From: Atopobium sp.
Lineage (GTDB): Bacteria; Actinomycetota; Coriobacteriia; Coriobacteriales; Atopobiaceae
DNA length: 64,000 nt
Direction: 5' to 3'
Assembly: GCA_015258785.1 (NCBI GenBank)
Contig: JABZHP010000001.1
Location: 6,434-70,433, forward strand
This document shows positions 26,035-37,313 of this stretch, piece after piece (the stretch's first letter is position 1; each line of letters opens with the position of its first letter). A model generated the notes under the pieces. That model saw only the letters and a list, made by a program, of their open reading frames with translations, was not told the DNA's origin and did not search any database. The position numbers and the translations under genes were made by a program.

Positions 26035-26385
26035 ATGTACGCAATCGTAGCAACTGGTGGCAAGCAGTATAAGGTTGCCAAGGGCGACGTAATCAGCGTC
26101 GAGAAGCTTGATGCGCAGCCTGGCGATAAGGTAAAGCTTGATGTTCTTATGCTTAACGACGGCAAGAAGGTTGTTGCTGACGCTGCCACTCTTTCCTCTA
26201 AGAAGGTTACCTGTGAGGTTCTTGAGCAGTACAAGGACAAGAAGGTCCTCGTCTTCAAGTTCCACAAGCGTAAGCGCTATCACCGCGCCAATGGTCACCG
26301 TCAGAACCTTACTAAGCTGAAGGTTACCGCGCTCCCTACCGCTCGTAAGGCTGCTGCTAAGGCATCCGACGAGTCTGCAGAGTAA
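26035..26385 (+). CDS. rplU: 50S ribosomal protein L21
   Basis: MYAIVATGGKQYKV N-terminus, characteristic of bL21. Confidence 0.95.
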   Translation: MYAIVATGGKQYKVAKGDVISVEKLDAQPGDKVKLDVLMLNDGKKVVADAATLSSKKVTCEVLEQYKDKKVLVFKFHKRKRYHRANGHRQNLTKLKVTALPTARKAAAKASDESAE

Positions 26386-26423
26386 TTGGTCACTTCTGAT
26401 ATTGAGATAGGCAGGTAGCATTT

Positions 26424-26678
26424 ATGGCACACAAGAAAGGTCTCGGCTCTTCCCGCAATGGTCGCGACTCACAAGCACAGCGCCTTGGCGTTAAGATTTA
26501 CGGTGGTCAGGCAATCAAGGCTGGCCAGATTATCATCCGTCAGCGTGGTACTCACATCACTCCTGGCGTAAACGTTGGTCGCGGCAAGGATGACACTCTC
26601 TTTGCACTTTGCGATGGCGTTGTTGAGTTCAAGAAGGGTGCTAAGCACGTCGTTAACGTCGTTGCTGCTGAGGCATAA
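26424..26678 (+). CDS. rpmA: 50S ribosomal protein L27
   Basis: [17 protein letters not shown]-terminus, characteristic of bL27. Confidence 0.95.
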
Positions 26679-26705
26679 GTTTTCTTGAACATTCGCAGTT
26701 CATTC

Positions 26706-26734
26706 AAGGGGTCCTTCGGGACCCCTTTTTATTT
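26706..26734 (+). terminator. Rho-independent terminator after rpmA
   Basis: AAGGGGTCC-TTCG-GGACCCCTT followed by TTTATTTC. Confidence 0.8.
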
Positions 26735-26798
26735 CTCGCGGTATTTTGCTCTTGCCGCGTACCGTTCACAGTTTCTAATTTGTTTCTTAATGTATTTC

Positions 26799-26829
26799 TT
26801 GACACAATCAGGCTAAGTAATGGTATTCT
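26799..26829 (+). promoter_or_regulatory. Candidate sigma-70 promoter for the trpP leader (TTGACA -35, extended -10 TGnTATTCT)
   Basis: TTGACA at 26799-26804 and TGGTATTCT at 26821-26829. Spacing is slightly long (about 19 nt). Confidence 0.3.
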
Positions 26830-26869
26830 TCTTACATTGCAATTTACGCTTTTGGGAGGAGGACATATC

Positions 26870-26932
26870 ATGCGCGCTACATGCACTCAGCAGTGGTGGT
26901 GGAACAACTTGTCTTTCTCCGGTCAGCGATGA
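26870..26932 (+). CDS. 20-aa leader peptide MRATCTQQWWWNNLSFSGQR with three consecutive Trp codons (trp attenuator-type leader)
   Basis: Strong GGGAGGAGG RBS 7 nt upstream of the ATG. TGG TGG TGG at 26894-26902. An intrinsic terminator lies 25 nt after the stop, and a TrpP-family transporter gene follows. Confidence 0.5.
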   Translation: MRATCTQQWWWNNLSFSGQR

Positions 26933-26957
26933 GTTGCTTCTGCATACGCATTTAGAG

Positions 26958-26985
26958 GCTCTCGGGTGACCGAGAGCTTTTTTTT
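26958..26985 (+). terminator. Intrinsic terminator (attenuator) between the Trp leader peptide and trpP
   Basis: GCTCTCGG-GTGA-CCGAGAGC followed by eight T. Confidence 0.7.
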
Positions 26986-27077
26986 GTGCGTACGTTTCTT
27001 GCTAAATCCGGATGGCGAGAAACCCGTGTTGTTAAAAATTTGTTTGTACGTTTTAGTTTTGCGTTAAAGGAGTTTGT

Positions 27078-27671
27078 ATGTCTACAGAAAATCTCAATCA
27101 GGTCAACGCCGCAGACACAGAGACAGGATCTGCAGAGCAGGCACCACGTGTTGTTACTGTTTCAAAGTCTTCAGGTGTTTTGGATGTTACTTCTCTAGTT
27201 CTTGTCGCTGTTCTTATTGCCGCAGGTTTTATTCTTAACCTAACCGTTGGCAAGGCAATTAGTGCTATTGGAATTGGTCCAGAGTTCATTATCGCGTCGT
27301 TCTGCCTGGCTATTCTTCTTTTGAAGCCAAACGCTGTTCAGAGCCTGGTTATTGGTCTTATCGCAGCTACTGTTATTCAGCTGACCACCTCTGTCCCTGG
27401 CGCTGATTTTGTTGCAGAGGGCGCGGCTTCACTTGTTATGTTTGCCTTCACAAGGTCCGCTCTTGCAGATAAGCCAGTAATGCCAGCAATTGGTTCTTTT
27501 GTAACCACTCTTATCTCTGGCCTCATTTTTGCTGCCATTGCTATTCCAGCCAAGGGTGCAACTATTGAGCTTTTCTACGTAATGCTTCCTGTCATCGTGG
27601 GAACTGCATTCTTTAATGCTATTGTTGTTCAGGTTCTTGCGGCTCCTCTTAAGAAGGTTTTGGGCCGATAA
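27078..27671 (+). CDS. trpP: ECF transporter substrate-specific (S) component, TrpP family (probable tryptophan transporter)
   Basis: Small polytopic protein. The IGPEFIIASFCLAILLL...LVIGLIAATVIQLTTSVPG region aligns with B. subtilis TrpP (YhaG) as I recall it. Followed by EcfA/EcfT genes. Confidence 0.7.
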   Translation: MSTENLNQVNAADTETGSAEQAPRVVTVSKSSGVLDVTSLVLVAVLIAAGFILNLTVGKAISAIGIGPEFIIASFCLAILLLKPNAVQSLVIGLIAATVIQLTTSVPGADFVAEGAASLVMFAFTRSALADKPVMPAIGSFVTTLISGLIFAAIAIPAKGATIELFYVMLPVIVGTAFFNAIVVQVLAAPLKKVLGR

Positions 27672-27706
27672 GTTCTTAGATACGCACTTATTTTCTGGAG
27701 AACACT

Positions 27707-29632
27707 GTGTCTATTATCGAAGTTCAATCTGTGTCATATAGCTATCCAGATAGCTCAGCACGCGCTCTGAATGAACTTTCTCTGAGCGTTCAGGAGGGTG
27801 ACTTTGTAGGTATTGTTGGCCCTTCTGGTGCAGGTAAGTCTACGCTTGCTCTTGCACTCTCTGGTGCCATTCCACATCACTTTAGAGGTAATTTCTTTGG
27901 CAAGATTCTTGTCTCTGGAATGGATACCTGTACGGTTGCCTTAACTGATATCTCTAAGATTGTGGGTTCTGTAACCCAGGATATCAACGCGCAGATGGTT
28001 GCTTCAATTGTTGAGGATGAACTTCTCTTTGGCCTTGAGAACTTTGCGGTTCCTCATGCAGAGATTCCAGAGCGCATTACCTATGCTCTGGAGACAGTTG
28101 GTATTGCCAACCTTCGCTTTAGAGAGATTGCTTCTCTTTCTGGTGGACAGAAGCAAAAGGTTGCTATAGCAGCACTTTTGGCGCTTCAGCCACAGGTTAT
28201 GGTGCTTGATGAGCCAACAGCAGCCTTAGATCCAACGTCGTCTGAGTTAATCTTCCAGACGCTTTCAGAGCTCAACAAAACCAAAGGTATTACGGTTGTG
28301 GTAATTGAGCAGAAAGTTGGTCTTCTCGCTAAGTATTGCTCAAAGATTGCCGTTATGGATAAGGGCTCCATTTGTGCATACGGTAGCGGTGAGGAAGTGT
28401 TCTCACAGGTAGATTTGCTGCAAGAGGTTGGTGTTGACGTTCCTCGTTGCGTGCGCGTTTCAAAGGGTGTCCACGAGCTCTCACATCAGGTGGAATATTC
28501 TCATCTACTCAGCGAGGCTGACCAGGCTGTCTGCGATGAAACTGCGCTATCAGTTCAGTTAGCCGCCAAGCAGCTTGCGTGCTGTGTAGGCGCTTTCCAG
28601 CATCGCAGCATTTCCCTTACAGAGGACTCTCAACCATTAGCTACTAATGACGTTGAATTAGCAGGGAAGACATATCTTCCAAAAATAGATGGCCCTGTGA
28701 TTGCTGAATCGAGCGGGCCTTTTGACAGAATTGGTGTTCTTCAAGACGCAGAGCAGTCATGCGTTCAATCTGTTCTTGACGTTATCGATGCCACCTTCAA
28801 ATATCAGGATAGTACTGATGGCGTTGAGCGCGTCTCTCTCAGTTTGCATCCTGGCGAGCTTGTGGCACTTGTGGGTCAAAACGGCGCAGGTAAAACCACT
28901 TTAACTAAGCTGGTTAATGGCCTGTTGCGTCCTCGATCGGGAGACATTCATATTAAGGGCTCTTCATGCAAGGATTGGAAGACGTCGCAGATTGCCCAGC
29001 ATGTCTCAACGCTGTTCCAAAATCCCGATTACCAGATTTGCAAAGAGAGTGTCCTTGAGGAGATTGCGTTTGGTCTTGAGCTCAAGGCTGTGTCTGCAGA
29101 AGATGCTCGCAAGAAAGCGCGTGAAGTAATTGATCGCATGGGGCTTGATGCGGACGCGTCGCCGTTTATGCTTTCTCGCGGTCAGCGTCAGATGGTAGCA
29201 CTTGCTTCTGTGGTTGCCTGCGAGCCAGATATTCTTGTGCTTGATGAGCCAACTTCGGGCCTGGATTACAAAGAGTGCATGCAGGTCATGAATATGGTCA
29301 AATCACTGTGCGAGAAGGGCTGTGCAGTTCTTATGGTCTGTCATGACATGGAGGTTGTGCTGGACTTTGCCACAAGAATTGTCGTTATGGCGCATGGCAG
29401 CGTGTTAGATGATGGGGAAGTTACACAGATCTTCTCGACAGATGAGGTTTTGAAGGAAGCATATGTTGAGGCTCCTCAGATGATTCAGCTGTCAAAGCTT
29501 GCTGGAGCGCACGTGGATTCATCATTTACTGGGCTTAGCAGTGCTTCAGAGGTGCTTGACGCATTGCAGCATCAGTTTGAGATTGCTCGTATTGCAGCCA
29601 CGCTTAATGGTAAGGAGGCTCCTCGTGGGTAG
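27707..29632 (+). CDS. ecfA: ECF transporter fused ATPase components (EcfA1-EcfA2 in a single polypeptide)
   Basis: Two ABC ATPase domains. Walker A GPSGAGKST and GQNGAGKTT, LSGGQ-type signatures and D-loops. Confidence 0.9.
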   Translation: MSIIEVQSVSYSYPDSSARALNELSLSVQEGDFVGIVGPSGAGKSTLALALSGAIPHHFRGNFFGKILVSGMDTCTVALTDISKIVGSVTQDINAQMVASIVEDELLFGLENFAVPHAEIPERITYALETVGIANLRFREIASLSGGQKQKVAIAALLALQPQVMVLDEPTAALDPTSSELIFQTLSELNKTKGITVVVIEQKVGLLAKYCSKIAVMDKGSICAYGSGEEVFSQVDLLQEVGVDVPRCVRVSKGVHELSHQVEYSHLLSEADQAVCDETALSVQLAAKQLACCVGAFQHRSISLTEDSQPLATNDVELAGKTYLPKIDGPVIAESSGPFDRIGVLQDAEQSCVQSVLDVIDATFKYQDSTDGVERVSLSLHPGELVALVGQNGAGKTTLTKLVNGLLRPRSGDIHIKGSSCKDWKTSQIAQHVSTLFQNPDYQICKESVLEEIAFGLELKAVSAEDARKKAREVIDRMGLDADASPFMLSRGQRQMVALASVVACEPDILVLDEPTSGLDYKECMQVMNMVKSLCEKGCAVLMVCHDMEVVLDFATRIVVMAHGSVLDDGEVTQIFSTDEVLKEAYVEAPQMIQLSKLAGAHVDSSFTGLSSASEVLDALQHQFEIARIAATLNGKEAPRG

Positions 29633-30374
29633 TGTTATTGATTACACCGAAGGAACAAGCTTCCTTCATAAGGCAAATCCTGTGGCCAAGCTTGTGTTTG
29701 CGCTTGAGCTCTTTGTGGCCGCCTTTGCCGCTCAAGGAACGCTTGAGGTGCTTGCAGTGCTCGCGCTCACTATTTGCGTGGGAGTTGTCTCACAGAATGC
29801 TCAGAAGACTTTTAAGCTGGTATTTGGCTTTGCTGTCTTAGGTCTTATCTTGTGTGTTGTACAGACGCTTGTTGCCCCTGCTGGTCAAACGTTCTTTTTA
29901 TTCATCACGGTAGGCGGTTTGGAGCGCGGCTTTAACGTTGCCCTAAAAACAATTGCGCTGGCACTGCCGCTGCTTTCTATGCTCTCGCTTATGCGCGTAG
30001 AAGACCTCATGAATGCGCTGGTAGAAGTGGCGCATGTCCCATACCCCTATGCATTTACCATTGCAACGGTTTTGCGCTTTGTGCCTGTCTTTGCTTCAGA
30101 GATGAACCATATCATGGAGGCTCAGATGGCTCGCGGTGTTGAGTTTGATACCAAAAATCCAATTAAGAAGCTCCAGCTCACCATGCCTTTGATTGTTCCT
30201 TTGCTGGTAAGTTCCGTTAAAAAAGCTGATGCTTCGGCACTTGCGGCTGAGCAGCGAGGATTCTATTTAAGGAACGCTTCATCTGCATTTAAACGCTATC
30301 CTTTGGCTCCATCAGACTTTGCTTTGATGATTTTTGGTGTTGCAGTAATTGTTGTTATCCTCGTGTTCTCATAA
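29625..30374 (+). CDS. ecfT: ECF transporter transmembrane (T) component
   Basis: GTG at 29625 after AAGGAGG, overlapping the ecfA stop. EcfT-like polytopic protein with an ARG-containing coupling helix (AQMARG). Confidence 0.8.
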   Translation: MGSVIDYTEGTSFLHKANPVAKLVFALELFVAAFAAQGTLEVLAVLALTICVGVVSQNAQKTFKLVFGFAVLGLILCVVQTLVAPAGQTFFLFITVGGLERGFNVALKTIALALPLLSMLSLMRVEDLMNALVEVAHVPYPYAFTIATVLRFVPVFASEMNHIMEAQMARGVEFDTKNPIKKLQLTMPLIVPLLVSSVKKADASALAAEQRGFYLRNASSAFKRYPLAPSDFALMIFGVAVIVVILVFS

Positions 30375-31892
<1,518 letters not shown>

Positions 31893-36040: not shown

Positions 36041-36562
36041 TTGCGTAAACACTGGCGAGCAATTGCTCAAATTGTTAAAACGCATGGTAAAAGAGGGGAG
36101 GTTGTGACGGTTCCCGTTCACAGCCTTCCTTCTCTTATAGCTGATGGCATGACAGTTGTTCCTGTTCCGCCTGCGCTTAAGGGCCCTAGAGAGTTCTCAG
36201 TTGTCTCTGTTGAGTCAGATGATAGAGAAGGTAGTCTTGTCACTTTTGAAGATGTAACTACCATCTCTGATGCAGAAGAGCTTGTTGGTAAAACGCTTCT
36301 GGTAGAAGAAGATTGTCTTCCAGAAAACTTTGGTCTGGTAAATGTTTCTCTACTTGTGGGTAGAGAAGTACGTGATACAGAACATGGTTCTCTGGGTGAA
36401 ATTACAGAGGTTCTTGTTGGACCTACACAAAATGTGTGGGTCATTGAGGGGCCTTTTGGACAGGTGCTGATGCCTGCCGTGGATGAATTTATCAAAGAGG
36501 CTCCAGCCGAGGGCTCCATTACCGTCTCAATTCCTCAGGGCCTTCTTAGGTTAGGTGAGTAG
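36041..36562 (+). CDS. rimM: Ribosome maturation factor RimM
   Basis: IVKTHGKRGEVV N-domain and C-terminal PRC barrel. TTG start. Confidence 0.85.
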   Translation: MRKHWRAIAQIVKTHGKRGEVVTVPVHSLPSLIADGMTVVPVPPALKGPREFSVVSVESDDREGSLVTFEDVTTISDAEELVGKTLLVEEDCLPENFGLVNVSLLVGREVRDTEHGSLGEITEVLVGPTQNVWVIEGPFGQVLMPAVDEFIKEAPAEGSITVSIPQGLLRLGE

Positions 36563-37313
36563 CATGCGTCTAGAAACGCTCTCAGTATTTCCTGAGGTCT
36601 TCTCGCCCTATTTAAATGCTTCTATTATGGGCAGAGCCCAGAAGGCAAACATTTTTGAGTTCTATGCGCATGACTTGCGTGACTGGACGCATGATAGGCA
36701 TCGTACGGTAGATGATGCTCCTTTTGGTGGTGGACAAGGCATGCTTATGAAGCCTGCTCCCATTTTTGAGGCAGTTCGTGAGATTTCTGATCAAGCGGAA
36801 CCTAAGCCCCACGTGGTGTTTTTCTCGCCAGTTGGTAGGCCGTATTCTCAGGCTATTGCCCAAGAGTTTGCTCAAAAGGAGCGCATTCTGTTTGTTTGTG
36901 GTCGCTATGAGGGCATGGACGAGCGTGTCTATGAGCTGGCAGATGACGTTATTTCTCTGGGAGATTACGTGCTGACGGGCGGAGAGCTGCCTGCGCTTAC
37001 CGTGATTGACTCGGTTGTGCGCTTGCTTCCTGGTGCGCTTGGCGATGAGATGAGCTCGCAGGATGAGTCCTTCTCTGACGATGGTCTTCTTGAGTATGCT
37101 CAGTACACGCGACCAGCAAATTTTGAGGGGCGAGAAGTTCCGTCTGTGCTTCTATCTGGAGACCACGGAGCGGTTGCAATCTGGAGACGACAATCTGCAC
37201 TTGCTCGCACTCGTGCATGGCGTCCAGACCTTTTAGAGAGCGCTCAGCTCACAGAGAAGGACAGAGTGTATTTAGCAGAGCTTGATCAACAATCAGGTGA
37301 TAATGATGAGTAG
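36555..37313 (+). CDS. trmD: tRNA (guanine37-N1)-methyltransferase
   Basis: SPOUT knot motifs (CGRYEGMDERV, SLGDYVLTGGELPA). Confidence 0.95.
   Translation: MSSMRLETLSVFPEVFSPYLNASIMGRAQKANIFEFYAHDLRDWTHDRHRTVDDAPFGGGQGMLMKPAPIFEAVREISDQAEPKPHVVFFSPVGRPYSQAIAQEFAQKERILFVCGRYEGMDERVYELADDVISLGDYVLTGGELPALTVIDSVVRLLPGALGDEMSSQDESFSDDGLLEYAQYTRPANFEGREVPSVLLSGDHGAVAIWRRQSALARTRAWRPDLLESAQLTEKDRVYLAELDQQSGDNDE

Follow-up and report, generated by a model that had tools for sequence, protein, structure and literature searches.

We identified, in a 64,000-nucleotide stretch of Atopobium sp. DNA (the window), a leader that is very probably a ribosome-mediated transcription attenuator sensing charged tRNA-Trp and controlling an ECF importer operon, most likely for tryptophan. 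This would be classical ribosome-mediated attenuation, here applied to a TrpP-family ECF importer operon, and the leader's most likely effect is to increase synthesis of the importer at low tryptophan. The attenuator is absent from Rfam, and we found no published description of it. A preliminary description of this DNA had proposed trp-type leader-peptide attenuation of an importer; the conserved leader, the mutually exclusive helices and the TrpP match reported below support that proposal.

The leader and the importer operon

Direct reading of the sequence confirmed the 20-codon ORF with three TGG codons and a strong RBS that had been noted previously (Table 1). Its codons are ATG CGC GCT ACA TGC ACT CAG CAG TGG TGG TGG AAC AAC, followed by TTG TCT TTC TCC GGT CAG CGA TGA, and its product is MRATCTQQWWWNNLSFSGQR*. 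The RBS, GGGAGGAGGA at 26854-26863, has its GGAGG core 7 nt 5' of the ATG. By chance, the sequence TGGTGGTGG should occur 0.28 times in 64 kb, counting both strands; the window has a single further copy, at 36725, where it is intragenic and read in a Gly-Gly-Gly frame. Because of this low expectation and the recurrence of the leader in 77 of 77 informative genome loci, we judge the arrangement to be far beyond chance.

Table 1. Features of the leader and importer operon, in window coordinates
Feature	Position	Strand	Details
Putative promoter	26799-26829	+	-35 TTGACA 26799-26804; extended -10 TGgTATTCT 26821-26829; sequence reading
P1 5' strand (5' UTR and Shine-Dalgarno region)	26839-26865	+	Pairs with 26910-26937
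Leader ORF	26870-26932	+	RBS, ATG, WWW and stop kept in 77/77 informative loci
Three consecutive Trp codons, UGG UGG UGG	26894-26902	+	Proposed sensing site; invariant in alignments A2 and A3
P1 3' strand (anti-antiterminator)	26910-26937	+	Shares 21 nt with antiterminator 5' strand
Predicted antiterminator 5' strand	26917-26943	+	Centred on leader stop codon, 26930-26932
Predicted antiterminator 3' strand	26954-26976	+	Terminator 5' arm, loop and first 3'-arm bases
Intrinsic terminator	26954-26985	+	Terminator scan; -19.2 kcal/mol
ECF S-component gene, 197 aa (predicted)	27078-27671	+	Pfam TrpP; RBS AAGGAG 6 nt 5' of ATG
Fused EcfA-EcfA' ATPase, 641 aa, GTG start	27707-29632	+	TIGR04520 443 bits, TIGR04521 417 bits, both above cut-off
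EcfT transmembrane component	29625-30374	+	Pfam CbiQ 89.8 bits; GTG start read from sequence

The putative promoter has a 19-nt spacer. Both hexamers are conserved in 19 close relatives, in which the intervening spacer varies. Our consensus promoter scan admits spacers of 16-18 nt only and hence did not list it. From its position, transcription of the leader would start near 26836-26838.

The intrinsic terminator that the preliminary description had placed soon after the leader stop codon was also confirmed. Its stem (26954-26981; 12 pairs in the terminator scan) begins 21-25 nt past that codon and consists of a 5' arm at about 26955-26965, a GUGA loop (26966-26969) and a 3' arm (26970-26980), with a run of eight U at 26978-26985.

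The TrpP-like S-component and the ecfA-A' and ecfT genes expected to follow it were recognised by their Pfam TrpP, TIGR04520/TIGR04521 and CbiQ matches. The ecfT gene has an RBS (AAGGAGG, 29612-29618), and its first 8 nt overlap the end of ecfAA'. Its true start is the GTG at 29625; the mechanically assigned one at 29499 was rejected. We collected 80 genome loci with homologous S-components, from Lancefieldella/Atopobium, Olsenella, Collinsella, Enorma, Thermophilibacter and Gardnerella, and the order S-component, ecfAA', ecfT was identical in all of them as far as the retrieved DNA extends. By its predicted gene content, the operon is a dedicated (group I-like) ECF transporter, with EcfA, EcfA' and EcfT encoded together with the S-component.

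Assignment of the S-component to TrpP was upheld in part. TrpP (PF17099) is the sole Pfam family match of the window protein, a 197-aa membrane protein, and covers profile positions 4-168 of 169, but the score is 17.5 bits (E = 0.0037) against a cut-off of 27.2 bits. Homologues 49-54% identical to it pass this cut-off, at 30.4-31.7 bits. Seven of 16 family members matched TrpP at E ≤ 0.01, and only one of the 16 matched another family (DUF7942, E = 0.0011). The window protein had no NCBIfam match and no sequence-level match in the PDB, and its family is annotated as hypothetical only. An AF2 model (pLDDT 81.9) has six long helices and one short helix. When it was compared with the PDB using Foldseek, the best seven matches were ECF S-components (RibU, ThiT and FolT; probability 0.85-0.99, TM 0.46-0.64), with weak E-values of at least 0.19, and BioY and PanT chains ranked lower. 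The window protein is thus predicted to be an ECF S-component from a divergent branch of the TrpP family.

This homology, together with the Trp-codon leader, makes tryptophan the most likely substrate. It is unlikely, though conceivable, that the attenuator operates as described and the transporter imports not tryptophan itself but indole, a precursor of Trp or a metabolite derived from it; if so, this may hold chiefly at loci where one leader precedes two S-component paralogues in tandem. Many loci do carry two diverged paralogues behind one leader (~45-55% identical to the window protein), and these loci, the sub-threshold TrpP score, the missing NCBIfam match and the hypothetical annotation all fit such a substrate. 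Tryptophan is favoured by TrpP being the only Pfam family matched, over the full profile length, by the homologues that exceed the cut-off, and by the Trp codons themselves, as control of this kind is the regulatory logic generally used to assign amino-acid transporters.

Alternative structures of the leader RNA

Mutually exclusive terminator and antiterminator helices had been anticipated, and folding predicted them, correctly placed relative to the Trp and stop codons. Transcribed from about 26837, the leader RNA would adopt three mutually exclusive structures: P1, the antiterminator and the terminator. The minimum free energy of the P1 region (26837-26940) was -42.8 kcal/mol (z = -4.8), and none of 200 shuffled sequences folded as well. 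P1-like pairing of the 5' UTR and RBS with the WWW-to-stop segment was present in most representatives, with shuffle z-scores from +0.4 to -5.1.

The conserved alternative hairpin 26917-26943:26954-26976, which is mutually exclusive with the terminator, is supported as the predicted antiterminator. In the window it folds at -24.9 kcal/mol (z = -2.3). When the folded segment began just past a ribosome stalled at WWW and ended 5 nt into the terminator 3' arm, 27 of 29 genome representatives gave this same extended hairpin, with energies of -18 to -31 kcal/mol. Its 5' strand contains an element X (CGGUCA, 26920-26925, in the window; GGUCGA or GGUCAA in other Coriobacteriia; GUUUAC in Gardnerella), which pairs with an element X' in the terminator loop region (UGACCG, 26967-26972, in the window). 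Most Coriobacteriia have the X:X' pair GGUCGA:UUGACC; the window has CGGUCA:UGACCG, and Gardnerella has GUUUAC:GUAAAC. This closing helix was found in every one of 25 distinct metagenome leaders, and the complete hairpin in 19 of them.

Energy tests gave a similar picture. Pairing of a stop-centred 32-mer with the terminator 5' arm and loop was better than the dinucleotide-shuffle mean in 33 of 33 sequences (z-scores -1.2 to -5.6, mean -2.6). Cognate antiterminator strands outpaired strands swapped between clades: the Gardnerella 5' strand gave -13.8 with its own 3' strand, compared with -6.5 and -8.7 when paired with those of Coriobacteriia. Codon choice in X also suggests a constraint at the RNA level, since 29 of 30 Coriobacteriia sequences use GGU for the Gly inside X, and nearly all 30 have CGA or CAA as the next codon, despite their high GC content. 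In the same 30 sequences, terminator covariation exceeded all 500 shuffles. Antiterminator covariation within Coriobacteriia was not above the shuffle control (42 of 500 shuffles matched the score and 158 of 500 the percentage paired), because the antiterminator columns are highly conserved within this class. Support for the predicted antiterminator therefore comes from conservation, energy tests and one deep clade split.

Lineages differ in the interior of the antiterminator. Six distinct C. aerofaciens-type metagenome leaders had a minimum-energy fold in which the terminator 5' arm was not paired with the stop region, and in most of the six this arm paired with sequence just upstream instead. 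The preliminary description had suggested a pairing of ATGCA (26881-26885) with UGCAU (26941-26945). This pairing appeared in no predicted structure and is broken without compensation in three close relatives (26882 T>G); the antiterminator predicted here is larger and different.

When only a ribosome footprint of 26-29 nt at WWW was masked, equilibrium folding of the window and of each representative still returned P1 together with the terminator. The antiterminator became the minimum-energy fold only when the RBS/AUG strand was also made unavailable. These results indicate that the switch has to be kinetic or steric, as in E. coli trpL.

We propose the following order of events. When tryptophan is plentiful, the first ribosome would pass WWW and reach the stop codon at 26930. 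With this codon in its A site, it would cover about 26915-26942, that is, the antiterminator 5' strand, so that the terminator forms and halts RNA polymerase at the U-run. When tryptophan is scarce, the ribosome would stall with UGG in the A site and a footprint ending at about 26906-26912. It would then occupy the P1 apex and leave the antiterminator 5' strand free, with P1 presumably held open by the stalled or a trailing ribosome. The antiterminator would sequester the terminator 5' arm, loop and first 3'-arm bases, and polymerase would read into the importer genes. Without translation, P1 would hide both the RBS and the antiterminator 5' strand, making termination the default.

A quite improbable alternative is that the leader encodes a TnaC-like arrest peptide, whose nascent chain senses free tryptophan while the ribosome stalls at the stop codon. 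Such a peptide would fit the constant WWW-to-stop distance (exactly 9 codons in all 25 Coriobacteriia representatives) and the conservation, within this class, of a C-terminal xxG(R/Q)x. However, the C-terminal peptide differs in Gardnerella (QTSLWRSLL, QSSLWREFTLKF), where the spacing is 9, 12 or 13 codons and the RNA architecture is nonetheless kept. The conserved Gly and Arg/Gln codons also show almost no synonymous variation and pair with the terminator loop, an explanation at the RNA level. Furthermore, TnaC acts on Rho-dependent termination, unlike this leader with its intrinsic terminator.

We consider it extremely improbable that the small ORF is untranslated and that its UGG repeats are incidental to an RNA switch that binds a protein, a tRNA or a ligand (TRAP-like, T-box or riboswitch), even though in free RNA the RBS lies buried within the long P1 helix. 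No Rfam family matched the leader (26837-26985) even at E = 1; at E up to 10, only chance-level ROSE_2 and suhB matches arose, on the terminator only. At gathering thresholds, the whole window yielded three tRNAs only, and RF00513 was not matched. No T-box covariance-model match was found at E up to 10 in 26600-27200. TRAP binds 9-11 spaced (G/U)AG repeats, whereas the leader has only three UGG triplets, which are contiguous. Moreover, the sequence and length of the N-terminal peptide vary freely among relatives, while the RBS, the ATG, a frame that stays open through WWW and a stop in that frame are always kept, as expected only if the frame is read.

Conservation of the leader with the operon

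The preliminary description had proposed a search of related genomes, and relatives do carry a WWW-containing small ORF upstream of the same S-component. The leader was present in all 77 genome loci with intact upstream DNA (WWW in 76, WW in one), each time with a terminator between it and the first S-component gene, as in the window. Ten apparently leader-less exceptions were second copies of tandem paralogues, in which the leader precedes the first S-component gene. Of 31 metagenome leaders for which 700 nt or more of DNA lay downstream, 30 were followed by the S-component, and ecfAA' and ecfT came next wherever the retrieved DNA extended that far. The arrangement thus recurs in gut, oral and vaginal Actinobacteria (Coriobacteriia and Gardnerella).

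Among the representatives, the terminator starts 61-76 nt past the first Trp codon. Across 20 close relatives, 10 of 149 leader columns varied, compared with 34 of 101 columns immediately upstream, and no variable column fell in WWW, the antiterminator strands or the terminator stems.

The rplU-rpmA and obg genes flank the leader-operon unit in some genera only; judged from these comparisons, the leader travels with the operon and not with the flanking genes. A chance ORF beside a constitutive terminator that insulates the operon from rplU-rpmA transcription would suit the position of the element just downstream of rpmA in this genome, but the comparative data effectively refute it: rpmA has a separate terminator of its own (26706-26727, terminator scan), the leader stays with the operon in genomes lacking rplU-rpmA upstream, and the Trp codons are kept as counted above.

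Relation to known systems

As proposed here, the leader follows the same logic as E. coli trpL (Rfam Trp_leader, RF00513), with a 1:2 anti-antiterminator, a 2:3 antiterminator and a 3:4 terminator. In both, a ribosome at the stop codon would block 2:3 and one at the Trp codons would permit it; the terminator is favoured at equilibrium, and the decision is kinetic. Strand 1 is formed by the 5' UTR and RBS, upstream of the ribosome, in this leader, and by the Trp-codon segment in E. coli trpL. Unlike that of E. coli, the predicted antiterminator also spans the terminator loop and reaches into the 3' arm. This leader has three Trp codons with nine codons to the stop, compared with two and three, respectively, in E. 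coli trpL.

In Firmicutes, tryptophan transporter genes are regulated by TRAP, which acts on B. subtilis trpP (yhaG), or by Trp T-boxes. B. subtilis trpP and, by prediction, the present operon share the cargo family (TrpP, PF17099) and the aim of producing more importer at low tryptophan. The Firmicutes sensors are a protein (TRAP) or an uncharged tRNA (T-box) binding the RNA, whereas this leader has no T-box or TRAP site. The 'TrpP' of Corynebacterium glutamicum (cg3357) belongs to the SdpI/YhfL family, has three TM helices and is of doubtful function in transport (PMC11995493); it shares only the name and is unrelated to the S-component family PF17099.

Actinobacterial trp leaders carry tandem or triple UGG (PMC1262725, PMC11995493), which backs the likeness to the WWW of Streptomyces trpL mentioned in the preliminary description. 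The trpL leaders of Corynebacterium and Streptomyces and the trpS2 leader of S. avermitilis belong to the same phylum as this leader (PMC1262725, PMC11995493). Compared by description only, they resemble it in having a short ORF in which UGG is repeated two or three times in tandem, and an intrinsic terminator that is GC-rich and ends in a U-tract; they also have an overlapping antiterminator, of the kind predicted here. They control Trp biosynthesis or a tRNA synthetase rather than an ECF importer operon. In some Firmicutes, predicted His leader-peptide attenuators stand in front of his operons and of the hisXYZ transporter (PMC9413887). These attenuators differ from the present leader in amino acid, transporter class and phylum, and provide a precedent, likewise from comparative genomics alone, for leader-peptide attenuation of amino-acid uptake genes.

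The leader and its operon in the window

The preliminary description had placed a leader ORF with three consecutive Trp codons (WWW), a strong ribosome-binding site (RBS) and an intrinsic terminator ahead of a TrpP-like ECF transporter operon. Direct reading and a terminator scan bore out each of these elements at its position. Transcription likely starts near 26837, judging from the promoter sequence and from the retention of both promoter hexamers in close relatives.

Features of the leader region, the operon and the predicted antiterminator (AT; X and X', strands of its closing helix), in window positions
Feature	Position	Strand	Basis
Terminator of upstream rpmA (separate)	26706-26727		terminator scan
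Likely promoter, -35 TTGACA	26799-26804	+	read from sequence, hexamer kept in close relatives
Likely promoter, extended -10 TGgTATTCT	26821-26829	+	read from sequence, hexamer kept in close relatives
Shine-Dalgarno purine run GGGAGGAGGA, strong	26854-26863, 7 nt before ATG	+	direct reading
Leader ORF, MRATCTQQWWWNNLSFSGQR	ATG 26870, TGA 26930-26932, 20 codons	+	direct reading
Trp codons UGG UGG UGG	26894-26902	+	direct reading
Intrinsic terminator	stem 26954-26981, 12 pairs, loop GUGA; eight U to 26985	+	terminator scan
AT, X:X'	26920-26925 (CGGUCA) with 26967-26972 (UGACCG)		predicted fold
AT, stop-codon part	26930-26933 (UGAG) with 26961-26964		predicted fold
AT, inner helix	26936-26941 with 26954-26959		predicted fold
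AT, possible extension	26917-26919 with 26974-26976		predicted fold
S-component gene, 197-aa membrane protein	27078-27671	+	Pfam TrpP (PF17099)
Fused EcfA-EcfA', single 641-aa polypeptide	27707-29632	+	TIGR04520 and TIGR04521, both above cut-off
ecfT	GTG 29625 to 30374, behind AAGGAGG	+	CbiQ

The start of ecfT overlaps the ecfAA' stop by 8 nt, an arrangement that suggests translational coupling; the start given in the ORF list (TTG 29499) was an artefact. The operon lies between rplU-rpmA upstream and obg downstream (26035-31892), genes that usually adjoin each other. This upstream context recurred in L. rimae, at two Olsenella loci and in Olegusella (L020-L022 and L054 among the loci retrieved for comparison) and was absent in Collinsella and Gardnerella. 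A simple scan of 30375-30443, from the ecfT stop (30374) to the obg start (GTG 30444), detected no terminator-like or consensus promoter site, so that transcription from the Trp-attenuated operon might run on into obg, which encodes an essential GTPase.

Several minor features of the region were noted. The terminator tail differed at window 26978, with eight U in the window and seven in 19/19 close relatives. Directly downstream, a second hairpin (GTTTCTTGCTAAATCCGGATGGCGAGAAAC, 26994-27023, 11 pairs) without a U-run was kept in the L. parvula group but seems dispensable, since the region is deleted in the comparison locus L006. The rpmA terminator hairpin (26688-26734) matched the 3' end of Pseudomonas CrcZ in Rfam at 18.1 bits (gathering score 95; E = 0.0099); we attribute this to a generic GC-rich terminator likeness rather than homology. 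The sequence TGGTGGTGG has a chance expectation of 0.28 in the window, and its only other copy there (36725-36733) was rejected as a leader: it is read as Gly-Gly-Gly (...PFGGGQG...) inside ORF 36555-37313, which we take, from its sequence, to resemble TrmD.

Distribution and shared anatomy of the leader

Searching with an S-component profile brought up 80 genome loci, distributed over Lancefieldella/Atopobium, Olsenella, Olegusella, Tractidigestivibacter, Thermophilibacter, Collinsella, Enorma and Gardnerella. The S-component of one of them (L001) was identical to that of the window, and loci labelled Lancefieldella parvula were ~95% identical at the protein level. In most of the 80 loci, a small WWW ORF lay 120-300 nt upstream of the S-component gene. 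Ten loci seemingly without a leader represented the second copy of tandem S-component paralogues, and in nine of these the leader preceded the first copy. Three loci were broken off at contig ends, one of which, L057, still contained the 3' half of the leader and the terminator. The proposed link between a WWW ORF and the S-component gene thus held in relatives: a leader was present in 77/77 informative loci, with WWW in 76 and WW in one, and all 77 had a hairpin with a U-rich tail. TGGTGGTGG occurred 83 times on both strands of 955 kb of locus DNA, nearly all copies being the leaders themselves. The gene order of leader, one or two S-component genes, ecfAA' and ecfT held at every locus over the extent of DNA retrieved, whereas flanking genes varied between genera, which ties the leader to the operon.

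Scanning metagenomes with a loose DNA pattern yielded 39 further leaders after filtering, which removed about two thirds of 120 matches as chance. An S-component gene followed in 30 of the 31 leaders with at least 700 nt of downstream DNA, with ecfAA' and ecfT where the DNA reached that far.

All representatives shared one plan: an RBS and ATG, 8-19 variable codons, then WWW. The distance from WWW to the stop was exactly nine codons in 25/25 Coriobacteriia representatives and 9, 12 or 13 in Gardnerella, and the terminator hairpin began 61-76 nt after the first Trp codon. The N-terminal peptide varied freely in sequence and length while the frame, WWW and stop were kept, which is the signature of a ribosome-read frame. 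After WWW, conservation was at the nucleotide level. Element X, GGUCGA or GGUCAA, precedes the stop, and its partner X' (UUGACC) runs across the terminator loop into the beginning of the 3' arm. The Gly codon in X was GGU in 29/30 Coriobacteriia sequences, and nearly all had CGA or CAA as the codon after it, even in GC-rich Collinsella; such near-fixed codons despite high GC suggest that it is the RNA and not the peptide that is constrained. Across 20 close relatives of the window, 10/149 leader columns were variable, compared with 34/101 directly upstream, while WWW, both AT strands and the terminator stems were free of variation.

Some loci departed from the common form. The Collinsella provencensis leader L077 (NNWWRSFRFAGQR, ~119 nt upstream of the S-component gene) was the only one with two Trp codons, and it keeps the X element, stop codon and terminator. 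The metagenome locus L105 (1908-2563), the exception among the 31, is a decayed operon remnant that retains the leader and terminator and has no S-component gene; its next ORF fuses an EcfA-like N-terminus to an EcfT-like N-terminal motif. Two loci labelled Prevotella sp. CAG:279 (L037) and Alloprevotella sp. (L067) contain a Coriobacteriia-type leader and operon and are probably mis-binned contigs.

Predicted antiterminator, terminator and a third structure

We folded the RNA available at the decision point, starting just past a ribosome that has stalled at WWW and ending five bases into the terminator 3' arm. The same extended hairpin formed in 27/29 genome representatives (-18 to -31 kcal/mol), and among distinct metagenome leaders the X:X' closing helix was found in 25/25 and the full hairpin in 19/25. 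In the window this antiterminator had an energy of -24.9 kcal/mol (z = -2.3; 5/200 shuffles as good), compared with -19.2 for the terminator alone. In the AT fold the terminator's 5' arm is fully engaged, along with three of its four loop bases and between three and seven bases at the beginning of its 3' arm. The terminator therefore cannot form alongside AT, which would block the pairs next to the loop, where nucleation of the terminator hairpin begins. With a leader in every informative locus and an AT and terminator predicted to be mutually exclusive, the reading that attenuation would act on an importer rather than on biosynthesis genes was supported. The specific helix suggested in the preliminary description, ATGCA (26881-85) with UGCAU (26941-45), did not survive: it appeared in no predicted fold, and three relatives have T>G at 26882 without compensation.

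AT pairing was also favoured beyond the window. In 33/33 non-redundant sequences, the stop-centred 32-nt segment paired with the terminator 5' arm and loop more strongly than dinucleotide shuffles did on average (z from -1.2 to -5.6, mean -2.6), and it usually beat random 32-mers of the same locus. X and X' were complementary in every clade, as GGUCGA:UUGACC, CGGUCA:UGACCG or GUUUAC:GUAAAC (or GUAAGC). When strands were swapped between clades, the Gardnerella 5' strand reached -13.8 kcal/mol with its own 3' strand and -6.5 to -8.7 with Coriobacteriia 3' strands, while Coriobacteriia cognate pairs reached about -21 and fell to -11 to -13 with Gardnerella 3' strands.

In a column-wise test on a MAFFT alignment, 85.8% of cells in the AT columns were paired within Coriobacteriia, compared with 23-58% when the partner was slid. 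AT covariation was not above the shuffle control in this test (42/500), because AT columns hardly vary; sequences with 4-5-nt loops also sit one column out of register, which depresses the AT counts. In its place, AT was assessed by per-sequence folding, duplex-energy shuffles and clade swaps. For the terminator, the same test gave 90.6% paired, and 0/500 shuffles reached its covariation.

In free RNA, a third structure (P1) was predicted, in which the 5' UTR and RBS (26839-26865) pair with 26910-26937 (-42.8 kcal/mol, z = -4.8; 0/200 shuffles as good). P1 buries the RBS and shares 21 nt with the AT 5' strand. Pairing of the 5' UTR/RBS/AUG with the WWW-to-stop segment was found in most representatives, with shuffle z from +0.4 to -5.1; in Collinsella, it is the Trp codons themselves that pair with GCCACCA beside the start codon.

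By its pairing, AT would exclude the terminator. Equilibrium folding of full-length or truncated RNAs, with or without a ribosome-footprint mask, always favoured the terminator together with P1 and gave no switch. With the footprint of a stalled ribosome masked alone, P1 and terminator remained the minimum-energy fold, and AT won only when the RBS/AUG strand was also unavailable. The terminator is likewise favoured at equilibrium in E. coli trpL, where the decision is kinetic.

We took the standard footprint of a ribosome, which reaches ~12 nt upstream and ~15 nt downstream of its P site. A ribosome whose A site holds the stop codon would cover about 26915-26942, essentially the whole AT 5' strand, and the terminator would form. 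With a UGG in the A site, coverage would end at about 26906-26912, leaving the AT 5' strand free and the ribosome on the P1 apex, where it may keep P1 from zipping down; a trailing 30S subunit on the strong RBS could also hold P1 open. Without a ribosome, P1 would form and termination would be the default. This scheme would match classical three-helix attenuation logic, and its predicted outcome, more importer at low charged tRNA-Trp, would be physiologically sensible.

Identity of the S-component and relation to known attenuators

The assignment of the S-component to TrpP passed the Pfam cut-off for some homologues and fell short of it for the window protein itself. TrpP was its only Pfam match and the whole profile was covered, but it scored 17.5 bits where the cut-off is 27.2. 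Homologues with 49-54% identity to the window protein scored 30.4-31.7 bits, above the curated cut-off, and 7/16 family members matched TrpP at E <= 0.01. An AF2 model (pLDDT 81.9) contained six long helices and one short one. Its seven best PDB matches were ECF S-components (RibU, ThiT, FolT; probability 0.85-0.99, TM 0.46-0.64, with weak E-values), with BioY and PanT chains ranking below these. The protein matched nothing in NCBIfam, and querying PDB sequences with the family profile also came up empty. All database names of the family are 'hypothetical protein', and a profile search of 5.8 billion proteins for a named Firmicutes TrpP returned the same unnamed family in all of the best 120 matches listed. 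C. glutamicum TrpP was rejected as a relative, since the shared name is a collision and the protein belongs to the unrelated SdpI/YhfL family. As the support consists of weak homology and the Trp-codon leader, we infer tryptophan as the substrate.

Three tandem Trp codons also occur in C. glutamicum trpL (PMC11995493), and His attenuators have been predicted before his operons and the hisXYZ transporter in some Firmicutes (PMC9413887). The leader matched no Rfam family at permissive or gathering thresholds, and for Coriobacteriia or Gardnerella we found no description of a Trp leader that precedes TrpP or an ECF transporter in a search that took in part of the subscription literature. The evidence supports a well-conserved member of a known regulatory class, previously undescribed in the literature found, that is attached to an importer and not to biosynthesis genes.

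We consider it unlikely that the attenuator gates the entire energizing module EcfA-A'-T and more than a substrate-binding subunit, that its switch is an architectural variant and that an actinobacterial trpL has been re-deployed to a transporter in lineages without Trp synthesis. If that were true, and these small, host-associated genomes encoded no ECF module besides EcfA-A'-T, the charging of tRNA-Trp would determine their capacity for every kind of ECF-dependent vitamin uptake. In the variant switch, AT would clamp the terminator loop through X:X', and the RBS/5' UTR would pair with the Trp codons and the AT strand, limiting the leader to essentially one round of translation.

For the supported reading, attenuation of a putative tryptophan importer, specialists would find nothing surprising in the mechanism; what the element offers is an annotation for an unnamed transporter family of medically relevant Actinobacteria, together with a clean RNA family open to modelling and experiment. 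The leader provides a regulatory, sequence-independent argument that the widespread 'hypothetical' membrane proteins of Collinsella, Olsenella, Lancefieldella/Atopobium and Gardnerella are the tryptophan-uptake S-component of a dedicated ECF transporter, and it would extend leader-peptide attenuation in Actinobacteria from biosynthesis to uptake. Its hosts are gut, oral and vaginal bacteria, in settings where host Trp depletion and microbial Trp competition matter, and the element predicts that Trp scavenging is raised when charged tRNA-Trp falls. This well-populated, cleanly conserved attenuator family is missing from Rfam and could be modelled and annotated.

The number and kind of S-components behind a leader also varied. 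A metagenome leader (L190, MVSKNAMNWWWRGVETVGRS) was followed by a more distant S-component (38% identity) and directly then by an EcfT-like gene, with no EcfAA' match within 2.2 kb after the terminator on the contig. The window has one S-component gene. In many loci of Collinsella, Olsenella and Tractidigestivibacter, and in one of Gardnerella, a single leader precedes two diverged tandem paralogues (L021, L023-L025, L028, L030, L037-L039, L041, L043, L045-L048, L056, L058, L066, L067, L072 and L080), which may differ in substrate or affinity.
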